64,000 nt of DNA from an uncultured Patescibacteria group bacterium (lineage in GTDB: Bacteria; Patescibacteriota; Microgenomatia; UBA1400; PJMF01), in contig CAJQIG010000004.1 of the NCBI GenBank assembly GCA_905478415.1, forward strand, positions 139,523-203,522, in the 5' to 3' direction. The position numbers and the translations under genes are program-made. This document shows positions 14,306 through 57,669 of the stretch, piece after piece. The notes beneath the pieces were generated by a model. The model did no database searches and was not told the DNA's origin. It worked only from the letters and a program-made list of their open reading frames with translations. Position 1 is the stretch's first letter. Every line of letters starts with the position of its first letter.

Positions 14306-15484
14306 TTAATTAACAACTAATGTATAAACCTTTGAATCAGTTGCTCCTGCTGAATCAGTCAAAATAATTTCTGGATAGTATGTTCCCACCTCTTGGGCAG
14401 TTCCAAAAATCTCACACGTTATTCTTACTGATGCACCTCTGCTGTTTTGATTACAGTTCCCTAAAACTAGACCAGTAGGTAAGCCAGTAGCTGCCATTGA
14501 AAGAGTGTCCTGAAGGTCAGCATCCTGCCCTCTCACCTGAAAACTATAACTTTGTGTTGTCACTGTTGATGACAACCATGGAGTGGCGATTACAGGTGCA
14601 TTGTTACCTGTAATTGGTGTTGGTGAAGGGCTTGGCATTGGTGTTGGCGAAGGACTTGGCGTTGGTGTTGGCGAAGGACTTGGCGTTGGTGTTGGCGAAG
14701 GACTTGGCGTTGGTGTTGGCGAAGGACTTGGTGTTGGTGTTGGCGAAGGACTTGGTGTTGGTGTTGGCAGTGAATTCAAGTCAACAACGTTAAAATAGAC
14801 TCCAGTAAATTTTGCTCCTTGATCTTTATTTGCTGGATACTGAGCCTGGATCTCAACTTTATAAAAAGAAGCTCCATCTGGAATGTTTGTTTCCATAAAA
14901 CCAGTACTTGTCCATGCATGATTAGATCCAGTTCCAGTACTATCACTTACACTGAGTGGCACCCAAACTGGACTCCAAGGGCCATCTGCTGAATTAGACG
15001 AATAAATAGTTATGGTTGCTTGATCAATCCAACCAGTAACCCACTCTGTTTGAAACTGAAGAGTAGTATTTGCTGGATCTGCTTGAACGATCTGGTACAA
15101 ATAGGCATCGTACCCATTAATACCGAATCCATATCCCCCCTGACCATAGCCGCTTGCAAATCTTGCCGCAGTTCCACAATACAACTCATTAGCTCCACAC
15201 TTGCCAGAAACAATAACATCTGCGCTTGGATTCGATCTTTTTTGACTGATAGACCATAGGACCTCACCATTAGTATTTTTAGCTGTGTCTATAATCCAGT
15301 TATTTAAAGAAGCTGCATTAGTAACGACATCACTCCTAAACCAAGGGTTTAAAAGTAAATTCCCCTCAGGAAGAGTCCCCACTTGAACGGCCAGAACCGA
15401 TTTTGCATATAAAATAGCAGTCAATGAAAATATACCAATAAATACTACAAGTGATCTTTTAGCTATTGATATAAATGTATTCAT
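14306..15484 (-). CDS. secreted protein with PTPSPSPT tandem repeat linker and C-terminal putative-Ig (dystroglycan-type cadherin-like) domain
   Basis: signal peptide; ~13x (PSPSPTPT); ...[10 protein letters not shown] motif. Confidence 0.6.
14612..14772. repeat. tandem 24-bp DNA repeat (ggcgttggtgttggcgaaggacttg, ~6.5 copies) encoding the PS/PT linker
   Basis: directly visible perfect/near-perfect tandem copies. Confidence 0.9.
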
Positions 15485-15630
15485 TAGTTTGACCTTCTAT
15501 TCACTTTAAGTGATGTATATTAGTTTATATAGTACTGTCCGATAAGTATGTTTTCAAGTAGTAAATTATTTTTTGTCTTAATGTGAGTAGTACCTATTAA
15601 AGATGGATATGGGCATAGTAATTTTTTACT

Positions 15631-15828
15631 GGCGAGGAGAGTGGGATTCACGACTCGCTACAATCTATATCTTCTTAAGGAAGCTCGCATACACTAGGGT
15701 GACTCGCACAGTGTGCTCGTGTGCCCGTCGCGAACCATCTTCTGCATTCCTTGTTACGCACCGATATAAAAAAATAGGCATTAAGCCTATTTTTTTATAT
15801 GCGGGGAGCGTGGGATGAAATTGGAACT
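15631..15828. repeat. ~200-bp dispersed repeat, copy 1: two degenerate tRNA-3'-end-like segments flanking a hairpin; ~85% identical to 55633..55826
   Basis: tggcgaggagagtgggattcacgactcgctac ... tatatgcggggagcgtgggatgaaattggaac aligned by eye to the tRNA-Ser(TGA) downstream region. Confidence 0.7.
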
Positions 15829-15921
15829 TTTTTCTCTCGATAAAGTGAGGCCTATAAATAATTATCCAAATTTATCAATACTAATTACTATTCTTTTCAA
15901 GAATTAGATTATATATATTTT

Positions 15922-18246
15922 TTATTTCCACTTGATTTTCCCACATTCACATCTACGACTATTATTCGAAGTATCTTTAAATTTAGTTACTGATTTATTA
16001 CACTCATCACATTCAAAAAAATTGAGAGCTTTTTCGCAAGAATCAATTAATTTTTTTGCCTCAACCTTAATTACGCTATATTCATGTGATGAACGATTAC
16101 CCCAAGATAACAACAATCTACTTGATTGCTTCATTGATTTTACTGCATCTAAATATGGAATATAACTTTCAGATTCCTTTATTAGGAATGATTTTTCCAT
16201 ATCTGGAATTAAGTCTAGTAAAAACTCTGAAGCTACTCTTACATCATTTCGTTCTCTATGTTTGTATTTCATTCTTACTTCTAGTTTTTCACATAATACT
16301 GCAAGACAATTATCCATAATTTTTCTACAATTATTTCCAGCTGAAGTTGCGTCATTTGATAACTTTGATCTTGCATCATCAAATGAGAACGTGTTTTTTG
16401 AAAATTGAATTCCTATCTCTGGATTTTCCCAAGGTTTTAATGTTTCAAATTCCCATTTATCATTTTCAAGTTGGTGTCTTAACTCTATAAACCACTCTCT
16501 ATCATGCGTTAAAATAAGTATCTGTCTCTCAGAAAATTCTTTTTCCAAGAGCTCAGCTACTAGTCCTCTATGATTTCTATCAAAACTTACTATCACGTCA
16601 TCTAAGAAAATTGGAATGTCTTTTTCATTACTATTTTTTGCCATTGAAAGGAAAATACATAATCCCAAACTATTTCTATGACCTTCAGATAAAGTTAATC
16701 TCGGTGACTCTAATTCTTTTCCATAAAATTTAAGGCCAATTTCTATTGCTTTATCTGTGTCTGAAGGAAGATATAATTTTATATCCTCAATTTTCTCATC
16801 AGGATGTAATATTTCCCACATTCTCGAAATATCTGAAGATATCGTAGTAATTATTTCAACAGACTTTTTTCTAATTTGATTTCTTATTTCTGATTCAGTA
16901 CCAGTAATAAAATCAATTAATGTAGTAATTCTATCTCTTTCTTTTATTCTTTTTTCGTTATTAAGAACATCTTTAATACCTTCAATTGTATTTTTATCAT
17001 CGTATAATGCTTGTAAATCCTGAGGCGTATCTTTTTTAGATTCAATCGCAGCAATAATTATTGGTTTAAATGTAGAACTAATTAGTTCTAATTGGTCTAT
17101 AGTACAACTGTTTCTGAGTTCGTTGAGATTTAAACTTTTAAATGGTTCCTCAATTTTCAAATCATTATTTTCTTTCCATTTTTTTAAAGACTCTTGATCA
17201 AAGTTTATTGTTAATTGTTCTATACTACTAACAAGATTATTGAGGTTTTCACGATGTGTTTGAAGGATTGTCATTGACTGTTCTAATCTGATAATTTCAG
17301 AATAAATATGATCTTTAAATTCCGAAACTTTAATTAATTTTCCACAAGCTGGACAGTCAATTTCCTCTTTATCAACAATTTCTTGAATAAAGTTTTGAGA
17401 TGAGTTTAGAATGTCAAGTTTTTCTTTAATTAAAGATTCAGATGAGTTTGCAAGTTCAGATAAACTCTCTTTTGAATTTTGAATCAACTGTAATAAATCT
17501 GAACCAGAAATTTTTTCTATTATTGTATATTCAGCATTTTGATTGCCATTTTGATTTATTTTCTCTTTATTTATTTTGCCTAAATTAGACAAAAAATCCT
17601 CATCTATTTCAATTTCTACATTATCACTTGTTTTGTCTAACTCTTTTGCTATATTTAAAATTTCATCTATTGTTTGATCATTAAATAGTAAATTCCTGCT
17701 TTGAGCTGAATTTTTAATATCTGTGTTGATTCCACTCAAATTTGCTTCACTAGCAATATTTCTTGCCAATTTTCTTAAGTTTTCAGCAGATATTTCTAGT
17801 TCACCTAAACCCAATAGTGGTAATAACGTTGAATACTTATCTCCTTTACTGCCCTTAATAAAATTTGATATTTCATCTTGCCTCAAGATTATTGTATGAT
17901 AATTTAACTTGTTAAGCATGTTGTCTGGAGGGGTAATTTGAACTGAACCATTTGGTTCAATTTCTGCAGATATTTGTGATTGATCTGTGAAAGTTATTAC
18001 TACTTTGGCATTATTATCTGCACTCATGTGAGTGTTAATTATAGATTTTTCTTGTCTACGACCGCTATACTCATTTGTTAAATGTAAAATTTTTCCATCC
18101 TTTATAATATATTCCATGCCATCTACAAAAGATGATTTTCCTGATCCATTTTCGCCATACAATACTTTTGATTTTTTATTAAGTTTGAGCGATGTAAAAT
18201 CTGATGCACCTCTGAACCAAGATAAGTCAATGTTTTTAATTTTCAT
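15922..18246 (-). CDS. Rad50/RloC-like ABC ATPase: Walker A, coiled coil with CPAC zinc hook, ABC signature, Walker B, H-loop, C-terminal ~190-aa domain with RX4H (HEPN-like) motif and terminal zinc ribbon
   Basis: GENGSGKSS (aa 31-39); CPAC at aa 298-301 mid coiled-coil; LSEGHRNSLGL; IFLDD; THDREW; RMKYKH; CDEC...CECG. Confidence 0.6.
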   Translation of the reverse strand: MKIKNIDLSWFRGASDFTSLKLNKKSKVLYGENGSGKSSFVDGMEYIIKDGKILHLTNEYSGRRQEKSIINTHMSADNNAKVVITFTDQSQISAEIEPNGSVQITPPDNMLNKLNYHTIILRQDEISNFIKGSKGDKYSTLLPLLGLGELEISAENLRKLARNIASEANLSGINTDIKNSAQSRNLLFNDQTIDEILNIAKELDKTSDNVEIEIDEDFLSNLGKINKEKINQNGNQNAEYTIIEKISGSDLLQLIQNSKESLSELANSSESLIKEKLDILNSSQNFIQEIVDKEEIDCPACGKLIKVSEFKDHIYSEIIRLEQSMTILQTHRENLNNLVSSIEQLTINFDQESLKKWKENNDLKIEEPFKSLNLNELRNSCTIDQLELISSTFKPIIIAAIESKKDTPQDLQALYDDKNTIEGIKDVLNNEKRIKERDRITTLIDFITGTESEIRNQIRKKSVEIITTISSDISRMWEILHPDEKIEDIKLYLPSDTDKAIEIGLKFYGKELESPRLTLSEGHRNSLGLCIFLSMAKNSNEKDIPIFLDDVIVSFDRNHRGLVAELLEKEFSERQILILTHDREWFIELRHQLENDKWEFETLKPWENPEIGIQFSKNTFSFDDARSKLSNDATSAGNNCRKIMDNCLAVLCEKLEVRMKYKHRERNDVRVASEFLLDLIPDMEKSFLIKESESYIPYLDAVKSMKQSSRLLLSWGNRSSHEYSVIKVEAKKLIDSCEKALNFFECDECNKSVTKFKDTSNNSRRCECGKIKWK

Positions 18247-18724: not shown

Positions 18725-18922
18725 ATGAAAACACTATCAGATCAATGCAACCACAAAAGTGGTGTTGAATCTGTTGCTTATAAAACAAAAAATAATTTTT
18801 CCAAACAAAAAACTCAGCAACAAATACAATCCCAAGAAGATATAGAAATAGAACGCTCTCAGTATTATTTAGGTCGAGCTCTTCATCGTTACTCACTCCT
18901 TCAAAAAGAAAGGAGTAAGTAA
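18725..18922 (+). CDS. small hypothetical protein preceding Rep (TAATG overlap)
   Basis: ORF with translational coupling to Rep. Confidence 0.3.
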   Translation: MKTLSDQCNHKSGVESVAYKTKNNFSKQKTQQQIQSQEDIEIERSQYYLGRALHRYSLLQKERSK

Positions 18923-19764
18923 TGTCATTAGAAAATGATGCTCAAAATATTCTTGGTGCAGTACCTTTAGGTACAAACAAAGAACCTAGTGTGCGTCAGC
19001 ACACTACTAGACTTGATAATACCGGCACAAAAGAACCACCAAAACCAAGAGGTTTTACAAAAAGTAAAATTATTCAAAGTGGCTCACTAATTGAAAGTTA
19101 TGAGTATGAAATACCACTTCGTTATGGTTTTACGCCAAAGCCAAGAGTAAAGACTGCTCGAAAGAAATCTGAAAGAAGTGCAGAACATAGAACTAGAACA
19201 ATAATTCGTGCAGTTAACAATATTAGAAGATTAACTCATCTAAACTTTTCAGAGTATGACAAGTTTCTGACTTTCACCTTTGCAGATACTTTTGAATTTG
19301 ATATTAACAAGCTTGATGAATGCTTACCATATTATAAAAAAGCAATGAGAAAGCTAAGACAGTGGTATCCAAATTTAAAGTATATTACAGTTCCAGAGTT
19401 TCAAAAAAGGGGTGCAGTTCATTACCACCTTTTGTGTAATATTCCTAAAATAAGACAGTCTGAAATGAAGAAAATATGGCCTTATGGTTTCTTCAAAGTT
19501 AAAGAAATTCATGGAACTACACACCTGGCATTTTATTTAGTGAAATATTTATCAAAAAGGTTTGATGATAAACGTAAACAGGGTCATAGATTATATTATG
19601 CCTCTCGTGGTTTAAAGCGTCCTACTACTTTGTATGGTCCATATGCTGAGGCTATTACTAATAAGCTCAAAAAGGATCATTCTAATGCTGTACAATATGA
19701 AACTAATTATGATACTGAACATAATGGAACTGTTGATTATAAACAGTTTGTGAAAGAAAAATGA
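18922..19764 (+). CDS. rolling-circle replication initiator (HUH endonuclease, pC194/Rep_1-like)
   Basis: motif I FLTFTF, motif II VHYHLLC, motif III YLVKYLSK. Confidence 0.65.
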   Translation: MSLENDAQNILGAVPLGTNKEPSVRQHTTRLDNTGTKEPPKPRGFTKSKIIQSGSLIESYEYEIPLRYGFTPKPRVKTARKKSERSAEHRTRTIIRAVNNIRRLTHLNFSEYDKFLTFTFADTFEFDINKLDECLPYYKKAMRKLRQWYPNLKYITVPEFQKRGAVHYHLLCNIPKIRQSEMKKIWPYGFFKVKEIHGTTHLAFYLVKYLSKRFDDKRKQGHRLYYASRGLKRPTTLYGPYAEAITNKLKKDHSNAVQYETNYDTEHNGTVDYKQFVKEK

Positions 19765-21281
19765 AAACTATTATTTATTGTCGTAAATCAACTGAAGAAG
19801 ATTCTAGACAAACTCAATCTCTTGGTACTCAACAACGTTTGTTAATTGATCTAGCCACTCGTGAGAATTTGGAAGTTGTTGATATTGTTAAAGAATCAAA
19901 AAGTGCTAAAGAAGATCATAATAGACCTTTGTTTGCCAACATGTTGGAAAGAATACAAAATGGTGAGGCTGATTCGATCTTAGTTGTTCACACTGATCGT
20001 TTGGCTAGAAATCTAATCGATGCTGGATATATTATTAAGTTGATAGAACAAGGATTCTTAAAAGAAGTACGTACGTTAACAAATGTCTTTTTTGATGCTC
20101 CATCTTTAACATACATGGGTTTTGATTTTGTTTATGCTGCCCATTATTCAAGAGACCTATCTGTAAAAGTTAAAGCCGGTAATGAAAGTAAAGTGCTAAA
20201 AGGAGAATATCCAAGCTATGCTCCAATTGGATACATAAATATAAAGCCAGGTAAAGGTATTAAGCCAGATCCAATCAGAGCACCATTTATTACAAGAGCA
20301 TTTGAACTATTTGCTACTGGTGAATACTCAGTTAAAACTCTAGCTAAAAAATTGGCTAGTGAAGGATATAGATCAAGAAGTGGTAAAAAAGTTGCTACCT
20401 CTAGTTTACATAGACAAATAACTAATCCTGAATACTATGGTGTTATTCGAAGAGATGAAAAACTATATCCTGGAAATCATAAACCTTTAATATCCAAACA
20501 ATTATTTGATGAAGTTCAAAAAAGGCTTGCAAATAAAAGTAGGCCAAAAAAGCAAAAGTATAATTTTGTTTTCAGAGATTTTCTAACATGTGGTGAATGT
20601 GGTTGTAAAGTTACTGCTGGAATTACTAAAGGAAAATATATTTATTACAGATGTACAAATGGAAAAGGTAAATGTACTCAACATAAAAAATATAGAAGTA
20701 AACAAAAAGTTACAGATGTATTTCAGGAATTTTTTGGAGGTTTCACTCTCGATCCAGAAAGAGCAAACAAATCATTTAATTTATATAAAGATTCATTAAT
20801 AAAAGAAGATAATTATAAAAAAGATAGTAAAGACGCAATTAAGCAACAAATCGCAAATCTAAAAAGAAAATTAATAAGGATTGAGGATATTTATATTGAT
20901 GAACAAATTTCTTTTGATCGTTATAACGAAAGAAAAACTGAATTTGAAAATGAACTTGCTCAATTAAAAGTTTTATCTAAACAAAAAAATAATGTGGGGA
21001 CTCTAGAAACTTTGGAACTTGTTGAAGAAGTAAAAAATAGCTCGGTACAGCTGTCTAAAATTTTTGAAGAAGGAGATGACGAGGTAAAAAGAGATTTATT
21101 AAAATCTGTACTTTGGAACTGCGAATTTAAAGATGGAAAAATTACTTCTACCAGACTAACTAAATTGTGGAAACCACTTGAAAATCTTAATGATTCTCAC
21201 AATTTAGAAAAATGGCGGAGGGAGCGGGATTCGAACCCGCGGTATCTTGCGATACGGCAGTTTAGTAAACTGCTGCACTAG
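19761..21281 (+). CDS. large serine recombinase (integrase); last ~23 codons read through the adjacent tRNA gene
   Basis: N-terminal resolvase domain IIYCRKSTEEDSRQTQSLGTQQ; recombinase domain; Cys zinc ribbon CGECGCK...YRCTNGKGKC. Confidence 0.85.
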   Translation: MKTIIYCRKSTEEDSRQTQSLGTQQRLLIDLATRENLEVVDIVKESKSAKEDHNRPLFANMLERIQNGEADSILVVHTDRLARNLIDAGYIIKLIEQGFLKEVRTLTNVFFDAPSLTYMGFDFVYAAHYSRDLSVKVKAGNESKVLKGEYPSYAPIGYINIKPGKGIKPDPIRAPFITRAFELFATGEYSVKTLAKKLASEGYRSRSGKKVATSSLHRQITNPEYYGVIRRDEKLYPGNHKPLISKQLFDEVQKRLANKSRPKKQKYNFVFRDFLTCGECGCKVTAGITKGKYIYYRCTNGKGKCTQHKKYRSKQKVTDVFQEFFGGFTLDPERANKSFNLYKDSLIKEDNYKKDSKDAIKQQIANLKRKLIRIEDIYIDEQISFDRYNERKTEFENELAQLKVLSKQKNNVGTLETLELVEEVKNSSVQLSKIFEEGDDEVKRDLLKSVLWNCEFKDGKITSTRLTKLWKPLENLNDSHNLEKWRRERDSNPRYLAIRQFSKLLH

Positions 21282-21300
21282 GCCACTATGCGACCCCTCC
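21213..21300 (-). tRNA. tRNA, Ser-type (long variable arm, encoded CCA); anticodon loop UUACUAA so the apparent anticodon is ACU
   Basis: folded by eye: acceptor GGAGGGG/CCCCTCC, anticodon stem GCAGT/ACTGC, T-arm GGGTTCGAATCCC. Confidence 0.6.
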
Positions 21301-21363
21301 TGACCCAAAATGTTGAGCGATTCACATTATATCACCTAGATCAAATTCTTAAGGCTGCGAGAA

Positions 21364-23784: not shown

Positions 23785-23803
23785 TTGAGGAATAATTGCG
23801 TTG

Positions 23804-23886
23804 CGGAGGTAGAGGGATTCGAACCCACGGATCCCGAAGGATCACGCTTTCCAAGCGTGTGCAATTGACCACTATGCGATACCTCC
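23804..23886 (-). tRNA. tRNA-Ser (anticodon GGA), no encoded CCA
   Basis: anticodon stem CACGC/GCGTG loop TTGGAAA; long variable arm. Confidence 0.8.
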
Positions 23887-24482: not shown

Positions 24483-24568
24483 GGAGGCATCGCATAGTGG
24501 CCAATTGCACAAGATTGCTAATCTTGACCGATTTTTCGGTTCGTGGGTTCGAATCCCACTGCCTCCGC
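24483..24568 (+). tRNA. tRNA-Ser (anticodon GCU), no encoded CCA
   Basis: anticodon stem CAAGA/TCTTG loop TTGCTAA; long variable arm. Confidence 0.8.
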
Positions 24569-55086: not shown

Positions 55087-55116
55087 ATGCGGAGAGCATG
55101 GGGTGAAATTGGAAAT
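55087..55116. repeat. degenerate tRNA-3'-end-like att relic (atgcggagagcatggggtgaaattggaaat)
   Basis: near-identical to 15799..15828 and inverted at 57639..57669. Confidence 0.6.
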
Positions 55117-55126
55117 TTAGTTAGTA

Positions 55127-55632: not shown

Positions 55633-55808
55633 GCGGAGAGCGAGGGATTCACGACTCGCTACTATTTATATCTACTTATGGAAGCTCGCATGCACTAAGC
55701 AGGTGTTTCGCAGGTGCTCAACACTTGCTGGCGCGAACAATCTTCTGCATACCAAACCACACCCCGATATACAAAAAAATGAGCTATTAGCTCATTTTCT
55801 TGTATATG
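55633..55808. repeat. ~200-bp dispersed repeat, copy 2: 23-nt direct copy of tRNA-Ser(TGA) 3' end (55633..55660) plus spacer with hairpin, abutting the real tRNA
   Basis: tgcggagagcgagggattcacgactcgc vs tRNA end gcggagagcgagggattcgaaccc. Confidence 0.7.
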
Positions 55809-55891
55809 CGGAGAGCGAGGGATTCGAACCCACGGGCCCCGAAAGGCGCGGTTTTCAAGACCGATGCAATTGACCACTCTGCCAGCTCTCC
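55809..55891 (-). tRNA. tRNA-Ser (anticodon UGA), no encoded CCA
   Basis: anticodon loop CTTGAAA; long variable arm; T-arm GGGTTCGAATCCC. Confidence 0.8.
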
Positions 55892-56788: not shown

Positions 56789-56865
56789 GCGCTCATAGCT
56801 CAGTTGGATAGAGCATCAGTTTGCGGAATTGAAGGTCGCAGGTTCGAGCCCTGCTGAGCGCACCA
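56789..56865 (+). tRNA. tRNA-Arg (anticodon read as GCG), CCA encoded
   Basis: acceptor GCGCTCA/TGAGCGC, anticodon loop TTGCGGA, T-arm GCAGGTTCGAGCCCTGC. Confidence 0.65.
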
Positions 56866-56924: not shown

Positions 56925-57010
56925 GGAGGGATGTCGGAGTGGTTTAACGGCCAGCTCTCGAAAAGCTTGGGGGACCATGTCCCACGGGGGTTCGAATCCC
57001 CCTCCCTCCG
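56925..57010 (+). tRNA. tRNA-Ser (anticodon CGA)
   Basis: anticodon loop CTCGAAA; long variable arm; T-arm GGGGGTTCGAATCCCCC. Confidence 0.75.
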
Positions 57011-57060
57011 CACATCAAGAGACATAAATTCACTTTGGAACTATGTTGTATACTTAGCTT

Positions 57061-57633
57061 ATGAAATTTATATCAACAGACAAACCTTTTCCTGTATTTT
57101 CCTTAGAAGCAGATCGTGACTACATTCTTTCTAGATTAATTAATTTCTCAGGTAGTGGATTTTCTTCTAGAGCTGGATATTTTGGACAGCAAGCAATAGA
57201 AAAATACTTCAAAGCTCTTATGGTCAGTCAAGATAAAAATTACATAAAAGAACATGACTTAATTGTTTTATCAAAATATTGTTCTAAGTATGATTCAAAA
57301 TTTGGAAAAGAAGAGTTTCTAGAAAAAATTAAAATCTTTGATGATTTTAGAGAAGTTGGCAGATATGGTGGCGAATCATCATACGATCCTCATTCAAAAG
57401 ATGAAAAGTATTTTAAAACAGCTGGTGTTTATAGTTGGACAGGAACAAATATAAAAATACTCGATGAATTAGTAAGTGCCATAAGAATAAAATTAAATTT
57501 TGAAACAATAGGTTTTAGTGATTCATTAAATGAAATTGCTAAGGATAGTAAAAAAGATTTCCTCGCAAATGAATGGAAACTACCTATTAATCTAAAAGAT
57601 ATACTGACAACAGATAATAGTTTTTTTAGTTAA
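57061..57633 (+). CDS. hypothetical protein (possible HEPN-like helical protein) carried on the islet
   Basis: ORF between tRNA and its direct repeat. Confidence 0.35.
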   Translation: MKFISTDKPFPVFSLEADRDYILSRLINFSGSGFSSRAGYFGQQAIEKYFKALMVSQDKNYIKEHDLIVLSKYCSKYDSKFGKEEFLEKIKIFDDFREVGRYGGESSYDPHSKDEKYFKTAGVYSWTGTNIKILDELVSAIRIKLNFETIGFSDSLNEIAKDSKKDFLANEWKLPINLKDILTTDNSFFS

Positions 57634-57638
57634 CTAAA

Positions 57639-57669
57639 GTTCCAATTTCATCCCACGCTCCCCGCATAT
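57639..57669. repeat. inverted copy of the 30-nt att-like relic (identical to 15799..15828 reverse-complemented)
   Basis: gttccaatttcatcccacgctccccgcatat. Confidence 0.7.

Follow-up and report, generated by a model that had tools for sequence, protein, structure and literature searches.

We examined a 64,000-nucleotide stretch of DNA from an uncultured Patescibacteria group bacterium (contig CAJQIG010000004.1, positions 139,523 to 203,522; hereafter the window), in which a serine tRNA gene with the anticodon ACU, tRNA-Ser(ACU), is located at the right-hand border of a low-GC island (29–33% GC vs. ~40%). The island encodes a 774-amino-acid SMC/Rad50-type ATPase, small open reading frames (ORFs), a rolling-circle replication initiator (Rep) and a large serine recombinase (table 1). 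An earlier, sequence-only reading of this locus had pointed to the tRNA, observing correctly that adenosine at wobble position 34 (A34) is highly unusual in bacteria outside Arg-ACG. It had considered three explanations: a variant tRNA borne by the element, a decayed copy of an attachment (att) site, and a tRNA linked to the adjacent anticodon-nuclease-like protein.

ARAGORN identified an intact tRNA-Ser(act) on the minus strand, and the Rfam tRNA model RF00005 (gathering score 29) gave it 50.0 bits (E=1e-7), inside the range of 45–68 bits of the other five tRNAs in the window. The body with discriminator base G73 occupies positions 21216–21300 and the CCA 21213–21215. The 5' part reads GGAGGGG-TC-GCAT/AGTGGCCTA/GTGC-A-GCAGT/UUACUAA/ACTGC and is followed by a long variable arm, the T-arm (CGCGG...), TCCCTCC, G and CCA. 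The acceptor stem has 7 bp, the D-arm contains G18-G19, the T-arm is standard, and the discriminator is G73. The Ser-type fold previously drawn by eye, with ACU at positions 34–36, stem GCAGT/ACTGC and loop UUACUAA, is thus borne out by ARAGORN (the tRNA-finder check suggested at that time, which returned an intact cloverleaf), by Rfam and by the covariation described below. The 3' 69 nucleotides are overlapped on the opposite strand by the recombinase ORF, and the gene has an encoded CCA, unlike the other five tRNA genes in the window; both points had been read correctly from the sequence. Fetched loci were numbered, L001–L010 being contigs of the window's species and L018–L137 reference-genome loci with ACU. 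The tRNA sequence is identical in all ten independently assembled contigs of the window's species that were scanned, which excludes an assembly error.

The six tRNA genes called by ARAGORN are five tRNA-Ser genes (ACT, GGA, GCT, TGA and CGA) and a tRNA-Arg(GCG). Besides ACU (21213–21300), the serine genes are located at 23803–23886 (GGA), 24483–24568 (GCU), 55808–55891 (UGA) and 56925–57011 (CGA). Clustering of tRNA-Ser genes was also observed in many related loci.

To analyze the distribution of this tRNA, reference genomes (one per species) were scanned with a pattern composed of the D-arm and TTACTAA, which gave at least 120 matches. ARAGORN detected tRNA-Ser(act) in 118 of the matches listed. 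In total, the tRNA was carried by at least 118 reference-genome loci and 37 metagenome loci, and the ACU anticodon was present in the window plus at least 154 other fetched loci; where the titles of the fetched loci are informative, most point to Patescibacteria. Among the reference matches listed, 32 titles name Patescibacteria lineages, including Levyi-, Gottesman-, Pace-, Woese-, Roizman- and Amesbacteria, the Microgenomates group, and a few Saccharimonadales and Minisyncoccia. Going by record title, the Patescibacteria (Candidate Phyla Radiation, CPR) that bear Ser(ACU) are mostly Microgenomates.

An alignment of 107 distinct Ser(ACU) sequences (88 columns) was used for covariation analysis. 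In the cloverleaf, 99.9% of stem cells form standard pairs and 18 of the 24 stem pairs show changes on both sides. Compensatory cells numbered 372, compared with a shuffle mean of 95 and with 16–38 in slid controls, and none of 500 shuffles reached the observed covariation values. The acceptor, anticodon, variable and T stems had been left free by the search pattern, and the variable-arm stem also covaries. Covariation in these 107 relatives confirms the anticodon-stem register of tRNA-Ser(ACU). G30-C40 and U31-A39, in a stem that the pattern did not fix, are invariant together with the entire anticodon loop (UUACUAA), and so are the T-loop TTCRAAT and G18-G19. The Ser-type features, namely the long variable arm, G73, G1-C72, G2-C71, A3-U70 and C11-G24, are invariant or present in 106 of the 107 sequences; these constitute the serine identity set known from Escherichia coli. 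Seryl-tRNA synthetase (SerRS) does not read the anticodon.

Of 149 distinct sequences upstream of ACU tRNAs, 70 contain a TAnAAT −10 hexamer no more than 60 nt from the gene, compared with 26.7 in shuffles. These hexamers peak 5–20 nt from the 5' end, and 34 have the extended TGn form. A serine-recombinase match within ~2 kb of the tRNA 3' end was detected in about 10 of the 118 reference loci listed, and within 300 nt in 5. None of the viral contigs scanned for the Ser(ACU) pattern matched. The small number of loci with a recombinase and the lack of a viral match suggest a chromosomal gene family. Judged from these sequences, tRNA-Ser(ACU) is a conserved host gene family and a frequent integration target, neither mobile cargo nor a pseudogene.

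Several further observations concern the ACU-bearing loci. A Levyibacteriota contig (L032) has two tRNA-Ser(ACU) genes (1623–1708 and 2709–2794); in one of them the D-arm is different. Val-AAC, Leu-AAG and Pro-AGG genes, which are rare, were likewise seen in ACU-bearing loci, given which the tolerance of A34 may be wider in this lineage. In several unrelated genomes (L026, L034, L062 and L107), the motif GGTTGCTCCAAGAC follows the ACU tRNA at a distance of 10–15 nt and might represent a further conserved RNA or the end of another element.

A metagenome scan based on the same D-arm/anticodon-arm backbone, with position 34 left free, gave 120 hits, with G at this position in 82, A in 38, and C or T in none. 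The G34 hits are ordinary tRNA-Ser(GCU) genes of GC-rich bacteria, in loci which average 58% GC; the loci of the A34 hits average ~40%. Since one backbone carries either G or A, the ACU tRNA of CPR bacteria corresponds to the canonical Ser(GCU) backbone with a G34A change. The earlier proposal of a G34A variant of tRNA-Ser(GCU) therefore holds in the evolutionary sense. It does not hold for the GCU gene of the window, which differs from tRNA-Ser(ACU) in the acceptor stem, D-loop, anticodon stem and variable arm, beyond position 34. Sequence comparison shows the latter gene to be a diverged paralogue. Ser(ACU) and the canonical bacterial tRNA-Ser(GCU) share type-II architecture, the D-arm GCATAGTGGYCNAGTGC, the lower anticodon stem and the loop context GU-UU-N-CUAA-AC, as well as G73 and a G1-C72/G2-C71/A3-U70 acceptor. 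On the other hand, every member of the Ser(ACU) family has A34, and in CPR bacteria it coexists with a second, diverged tRNA-Ser(GCU). Of 154 short loci that bear ACU, 62 also contain a GCU gene, indicating that ACU adds to GCU rather than replacing it.

The tRNA-Arg(GCG) of the window (56789–56865, plus strand; loop UUGCGGA) has counterparts in 24 of the loci with ACU. Among 77 GC-rich loci with an ordinary Ser(GCU), 30 contain Arg(GCG) as well, and Arg(ACG) was seen a single time in either set. Arg-GCG has been stated to be missing in bacteria, which use ACG with inosine at position 34 (I34) instead (PMC8007984). Arg(GCG) was considered as a proxy for loss of TadA and rejected, because it is also found beside ordinary Ser(GCU) in GC-rich loci without ACU.

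Table 1. Features of the tRNA-Ser(ACU) locus and of the associated element in the 64-kb window
Feature	Position	Strand	Evidence or remarks
tRNA-Ser(ACU)	21213..21300	-	ARAGORN; Rfam 50 bits; cloverleaf covariation in 107 distinct relatives
Extended −10 promoter element TGATATAAT	21326..21334	-	By-eye reading; ends 25 nt upstream of tRNA 5' end
Companion tRNA-Ser(GCU), conventional AGY reader, diverged backbone	24483..24568	+	ARAGORN, Rfam
Large serine recombinase, 506 aa	19761..21281	+	Pfam Resolvase + Recombinase + Zn_ribbon_recom
Rolling-circle-type replication initiator (REP_ORF2-G2P), 280 aa	18922..19764	+	PF23343, 6.6e-20
Small ORF before Rep, 65 aa	18725..18922	+	Similar-position ORF in most related elements
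Cargo Rad50/SMC-type ATPase, 774 aa, CPACG zinc hook	15922..18246	-	Pfam SMC_N; PADLOC; PDB Rad50
attL core CCGC (tRNA positions 71-74); CATTTTTCTAAAT... beyond it is element DNA	21215..21218	-	Five-tRNA and left-end alignments
attR: core CCGC (15801-15804) and element left-end arm ...AAAAAAGTTCCAATTTCATCCCACGCTCCCCGC	15801..15850	-	BLAST; alignment
Perfect 16-bp AT-rich hairpin, T/A runs on either side	15764..15800	-	Inverted repeat I24, 100% complementary
Second left-end arm copy, 2 mismatches	57634..57665	+	620 nt 3' of tRNA-Ser(CGA), low-GC patch
Third left-end arm copy, 6 mismatches	55089..55120	-	690 nt 3' of tRNA-Ser(UGA), low-GC patch

The recombinase matches PF00239 (1.8e-16), PF07508 (8.1e-16) and PF13408 (3.1e-7), and its DRLAR motif is conserved. 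The names given to its homologues, which include Gottesmanbacteria and Kaiserbacteria, point to a Patescibacteria host known from metagenomes alone. Many homologues are ~487 amino acids long and cover 96% of the query, suggesting that the last ~20 residues of the window protein represent read-through into the tRNA antisense. Genomic contexts were fetched for homologues with 62–82% identity (L011, L014, L015 and L016/L017). In each context an opposite-strand tRNA-Ser gene occupies the same offset, with the anticodon GGA in L011, ACT in L014, GCT in L015 and CGA in L016/L017. In the 13 loci from other species, whose homologues have identities down to 23%, the recombinase gene meets a tRNA-Ser 3' end in 11 (anticodon ACU in four, GCU in three, GGA in two and CGA in two), and the remaining two contigs end at the recombinase gene. 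The order in which Rep immediately precedes the recombinase is conserved in L011, L014, L015 and L016. A gene for 65–69 amino acids immediately precedes Rep in L001, L011, L014 and L015, and none was called in L016/L017; a family search with the 65-residue ORF of the window gave no match. Rep is of the filamentous-phage/plectrovirus G2P type and forms an operon with the recombinase gene (18922–21281, plus strand) in an element of ~5.4 kb, which could be an integrative rolling-circle plasmid or an element of CPR bacteria resembling single-stranded DNA viruses.

Alignment of five recombinase-adjacent tRNA-Ser genes revealed that the tRNA bodies differ and that only the sequence after ...CCGCCA is conserved; the stretch past this point, TTTTTCTAAAT..., is the antisense of the recombinase C-terminus. 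A BLAST search with the left junction (15788–15864) matched element ends in L011, L012, L014, L015, L063, L094 and L108. The conserved left-end arm (AAAAAAGTTCCAAYTTCATCCCAYGCTCYCCGC in tRNA orientation) is a mimic of a tRNA-Ser 3' end, and in the alignment conservation ends directly after CCGC. As CCGC is common to both ends, the element extends from 15801–15804 to 21215–21218. A repeat search from 15 to 21.7 kb found no long direct repeats, which fits a serine recombinase; the ends were located by comparison with sister elements. An Rfam scan of the left junction gave only small-RNA matches with chance-level E-values.

The hairpin in table 1 directly follows the attR core, immediately outside the element, and is read as the putative native terminator of the tRNA, now 5.4 kb away. 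Recombination at the common CCGC would leave the tRNA body whole, swap its native trailer (CCGC-ATAT and the terminator) for element DNA (CCGC-CATTTTT) and let the recombinase ORF continue into the tRNA antisense up to the first stop. The other tRNAs in the window end in CCGCAA, CCGCAC or CCGCAT, without CCA. The only encoded CCA of the window is explained by the element, which supplies CA after the core, so that the CCA stems from the junction with the element and does not belong to the gene itself. The Ser(GGA) gene of the window, in the order GGA-NUDIX-GCU, is unoccupied and ends CCGCAACGC, and its syntenic counterpart in L011 is occupied and ends CCGCCATTTTTC. A tblastn search of the flanking host proteins against all loci detected no syntenic relatives.

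The second and third copies of the left-end arm are probably scars of related elements, so that three of the five tRNA-Ser genes in the window bear footprints of this element family. An ORF with a HEPN domain (57061–57633) lies between tRNA-Ser(CGA) and the second copy. The left-end motif is present three times in L011 (3859–3892, 7094–7131 and 7744–7788) and twice in L014 (4088–4148 and 5650–5713), which suggests that elements or their remnants accumulated in tandem 3' of a single tRNA-Ser gene. A GC-rich patch within the AT-rich spacer (15620–15765), whose minus strand ends in GAATCCCACTCTCCTCGCCA and resembles a tRNA 3' end, may be an older att scar. It gave no Rfam match and was not found in the other loci; its interpretation as a structured RNA was rejected because the fold is no better than those of shuffles. 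Just outside the element, a PTPS-repeat surface-type protein (14306–15484, minus strand) has 376 or 384 amino acids or is split into 264 + 112 amino acids in different samples, indicating repeat instability.

Elements with large serine recombinases are represented by phage integrases, SCCmec CcrAB and XisF. The element of the window has in common with them the Resolvase, Recombinase and zinc-ribbon domains, a short core without long direct repeats, and a recombinase gene that abuts one att site. It differs in targeting the 3' ends of tRNA-Ser genes of several anticodons, in an attP arm that mimics a tRNA 3' end, and in the pairing of the recombinase with a rolling-circle Rep within ~5.4 kb. 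Targeting of tRNA 3' ends is typical of tyrosine integrases. We class the element as a new member of the large-serine-recombinase integrative elements, for which both the tRNA-Ser 3'-end target and the tRNA-mimicking attP arm are unusual.

Based on these results, we consider it probable that tRNA-Ser(ACU) is a functional chromosomal gene, belonging to a G34A paralogue family kept beside Ser(GCU) in Patescibacteria, and that its 3' end is the integration site of the 5.4-kb element. Several points weigh against this view. A two-hexamer promoter scan found no −35/−10 pair at tRNA-Ser(ACU), the −10 element having been read by eye, and a simple terminator scan did not call the hairpin. When the upstream DUF5661 gene was used to look for an empty ACU site in the window's species, none was found and the element was present in 23 of 23 contigs, so mobility is deduced from comparison between species. 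The pattern of the reference scan demanded ACU, so the counts cover ACU-bearing loci alone. Most of the remaining titles listed name uncultured Gammaproteobacteria or Pseudomonadales; these are taken to be mislabels, a presumption drawn solely from the synteny of L011 with the window. The function is proposed on the basis of conservation. Finally, two ACU-bearing contigs, L094 and L014, have TadA-like ORFs of ambiguous specificity.

Codon usage was compared in 39 host ORFs, as had been suggested for AGU and AGC. AGU accounts for 19.0 and AGC for 7.3 per 1000 codons, a 2.6-fold difference, and AGA (12.4) is the commonest Arg codon. The AGA codons of the recombinase gene are located on columns conserved as Arg; in six of these columns, among which is that of the catalytic DRLAR motif, Arg makes up 80% or more. 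Recoding of AGA to Ser was therefore rejected. As the code is standard, a Ser-tRNA that reads AGA would cause missense errors. Since AGU codes for Ser in any case, the anticodon does not call for recoding.

Given the conserved identity features, SerRS would charge tRNA-Ser(ACU) with serine. Through an A34-U Watson–Crick pair the tRNA would read AGU, the commoner AGY codon, and tRNA-Ser(GCU) would cover AGC and AGU alongside this dedicated decoder. A34 is probably left without modification, as an inosine at this position would read AGA too. The likeliest role of tRNA-Ser(ACU) is that of a dedicated AGU reader with unmodified A34. In E. coli, reading by an orthogonal ACU tRNA amounted to 9.4% for AGU and was not detectable for AGC or AGA (PMC11066159). 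That Microgenomates and other Patescibacteria have stably fixed this tRNA, in a codon box split between two amino acids and under the standard code, as an AGU-specific decoder with unmodified A34 beside GCU is possible, if somewhat short of probable, and we propose it tentatively.

Alternatively, A34 of the same conserved host tRNA might be deaminated to inosine by a TadA-like enzyme, giving an ICU anticodon that reads AGU and AGC strongly and AGA weakly. The TadA substrate rule is U33-A34-C35-G36-A37; the Ser(ACU) loop retains U33, A34, C35 and A37, the context of tRNA-Arg(ACG), and has U instead of G at position 36. The presence of the two TadA-like ORFs on the same contigs as ACU tRNAs is in favor of this alternative, and that of L094 has Staphylococcus aureus TadA as its best PDB match (76 bits, nearly full length). 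However, both ORFs are far below the curated TadA cut-off of 150 (74 bits for L094 and 56 for L014) and match guanosine/nucleoside deaminases about equally well. No tadA gene was found in the 64-kb window, and the top 'TadA' tblastn match, L090, was rejected since it proved to be RibD. In support of inosine formation, E. coli is able to convert some split-box A34 tRNAs into I34 (bioRxiv 10.64898/2026.05.15.725136). In the bacteria studied here, an ICU tRNA would misread AGA, which is still Arg, and would make the separate GCU tRNA largely redundant, and we regard inosine formation as unlikely.

A role outside decoding, for example as a seryl donor for the cell envelope or as a regulatory RNA, appears very unlikely. 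Some bacteria keep extra tRNA-Gly or tRNA-Ser for peptidoglycan bridges, and a redundant AGY reader invites such a role. On the other hand, G18-G19, the T-loop and the anticodon loop are invariant, as in an elongator tRNA that binds the ribosome, and strict conservation of ACU points to codon reading.

There is only a slight chance that tRNA-Ser(ACU) is cargo of a mobile element, that is, an element- or phage-borne variant or replacement tRNA as the sequence-only reading had offered. Its position at the edge of the low-GC island, where it abuts the recombinase gene, and its encoded CCA, unlike the other tRNAs in the window, are what such a cargo tRNA might show. However, conservation among sister elements ends at CCGCCA, and the tRNA bodies are host specific (GGA, GCU, CGA and ACU). 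Most of the 118 reference ACU loci listed lack a nearby recombinase, and an excised element would contain only the 3'-end mimic and no tRNA. A phage origin was rejected in view of the viral contigs scanned.

The cargo ATPase deserves separate consideration. Its C-terminal domain has invariant R641-x3-D645 and N717-x3-H721 and a four-Cys ribbon. PADLOC gave matches to LmuB (1.3e-21) and AriA (1.2e-13), and the PADLOC PrrC models did not match. Assignment to Lamassu LmuB was rejected because the profile match is confined to the N-terminal half and there is no LmuA-like neighbor, the adjacent ORFs being without PADLOC matches. The protein belongs to a widespread unnamed family of ~785 amino acids with an invariant CPACG hook, which is present in Chloroflexota, Planctomycetota, Tectomicrobia and CPR bacteria. 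AAA_13, which we take to be the family that holds PrrC and RloC, is matched by 23 of 25 full-length homologues (best 3.9e-17), and the window protein itself is below detection at E<=0.001. The family shares with RloC/PrrC nucleases a size of ~780 amino acids, a Rad50-like ABC ATPase, a CxxC hook and C-terminal invariant Arg, acidic and His residues, and differs from them in the additional four-Cys ribbon; its R/D/H spacing presumably also differs from that of PrrC. The layout is presumably that of RloC, which makes this label plausible, and we consider the family a candidate RloC-like defense nuclease.

Coupling of tRNA-Ser(ACU) to this protein, for example as a wobble variant that escapes or repairs anticodon cleavage, had also been raised by the sequence-only reading. 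The RloC-like build and the AAA_13 matches of its homologues make the idea conceivable. However, tblastn located the ATPase only in L001–L010, a single species, and in none of the reference ACU loci or any other ACU locus; sister elements at tRNA-Ser(ACU) in L014 and L058 have other cargo; its homologues are spread over unrelated phyla with no co-occurrence with Ser(ACU) seen; and the element family targets any tRNA-Ser. The restriction to one species, the different cargo of sister elements and the choice of any tRNA-Ser leave a coupling unsupported, and its likelihood is slim.

The least credible alternative is a decayed or duplicated attachment-site copy, that is, a pseudogene: integrative elements often leave partial tRNA copies, and tRNA-3'-end-like fragments exist at 15801–15832 and near 15630, but these lie at the other end of the element, whereas the tRNA is full length with its own −10 box, all its stems pair and every invariant position is shared with 106 distinct relatives, so that of the earlier suggestion the tie to an attachment site stands and the decay does not, the gene being an intact attB-derived tRNA.

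Since Crick's wobble paper of 1966, A34 has reportedly been expected to be rare, especially in boxes split between two amino acids. To our knowledge, textbooks call a serine tRNA with an A-initial anticodon a type missing from all life, and GtRNAdb holds few genomes of uncultured CPR bacteria. All split-box anticodons beginning with A (ANN) except that of Ile were listed as universally missing by Ehrlich et al. (2021; PMC8007984). A survey of 4,047 GtRNAdb bacteria from 2026 found split-box ANN genes to be sporadic and called their rarity unsolved (bioRxiv 10.64898/2026.05.15.725136). Both surveys rest on GtRNAdb, and neither mentions Patescibacteria or Candidate Phyla. Full-text searches retrieved no description of a bacterial Ser(ACU) family; subscription journals were mostly outside their coverage. 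The family thus appears to be unreported, and an earlier description is possible.

Known A34 tRNAs resemble Ser(ACU) in part. Mycoplasma capricolum tRNA-Thr(AGU) is a natural bacterial A34 tRNA of a reduced, AT-rich genome, and is described as unmodified in the part of PMC11066159 that cites Andachi (1987) and Inagaki (1995). In contrast to Ser(ACU), whose box is split with Arg AGR, it serves a four-fold box where promiscuity is harmless. The clade-wide A34 genes of AT-rich bacteria (bioRxiv 10.64898/2026.05.15.725136) are likewise retained across a clade, but belong to four-fold boxes, replace the tRNA with G at position 34 (GNN) and are modified to inosine, whereas Ser(ACU) belongs to a split box and the GNN gene is kept. 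The sporadic split-box A34 genes in GtRNAdb (Phe-AAA, His-AUG and others) also always stand beside a GNN gene; they are scattered over single species, whereas Ser(ACU) is a covarying family of more than 100 species.

As an integration junction, the single locus is ordinary; through it, a family of serine recombinases is defined whose target, the 3' end of tRNA-Ser genes, is short and whose att arms are readable from the data. The part likely to surprise specialists is the conserved "forbidden" tRNA. tRNA annotators and genetic-code predictors should treat Ser(ACU) neither as a pseudogene nor as a recoding signal. With covariation, a promoter in about half of the loci, more than 100 CPR species, a normal GCU and AGA read as Arg, the family is a natural counter-example to the expected rarity of split-box A34. 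If it does read AGU specifically with an unmodified A34, the near-universal ban on split-box ANN anticodons is no chemical necessity of decoding and depends on something that CPR bacteria lack or have changed, such as promiscuous A-to-I editing. The family would then be the first natural system for testing why A34 is avoided. Its existence makes it possible to ask whether A34 is unmodified, how misreading of AGA is avoided, and whether the ribosomes or modification enzymes of CPR bacteria are different.

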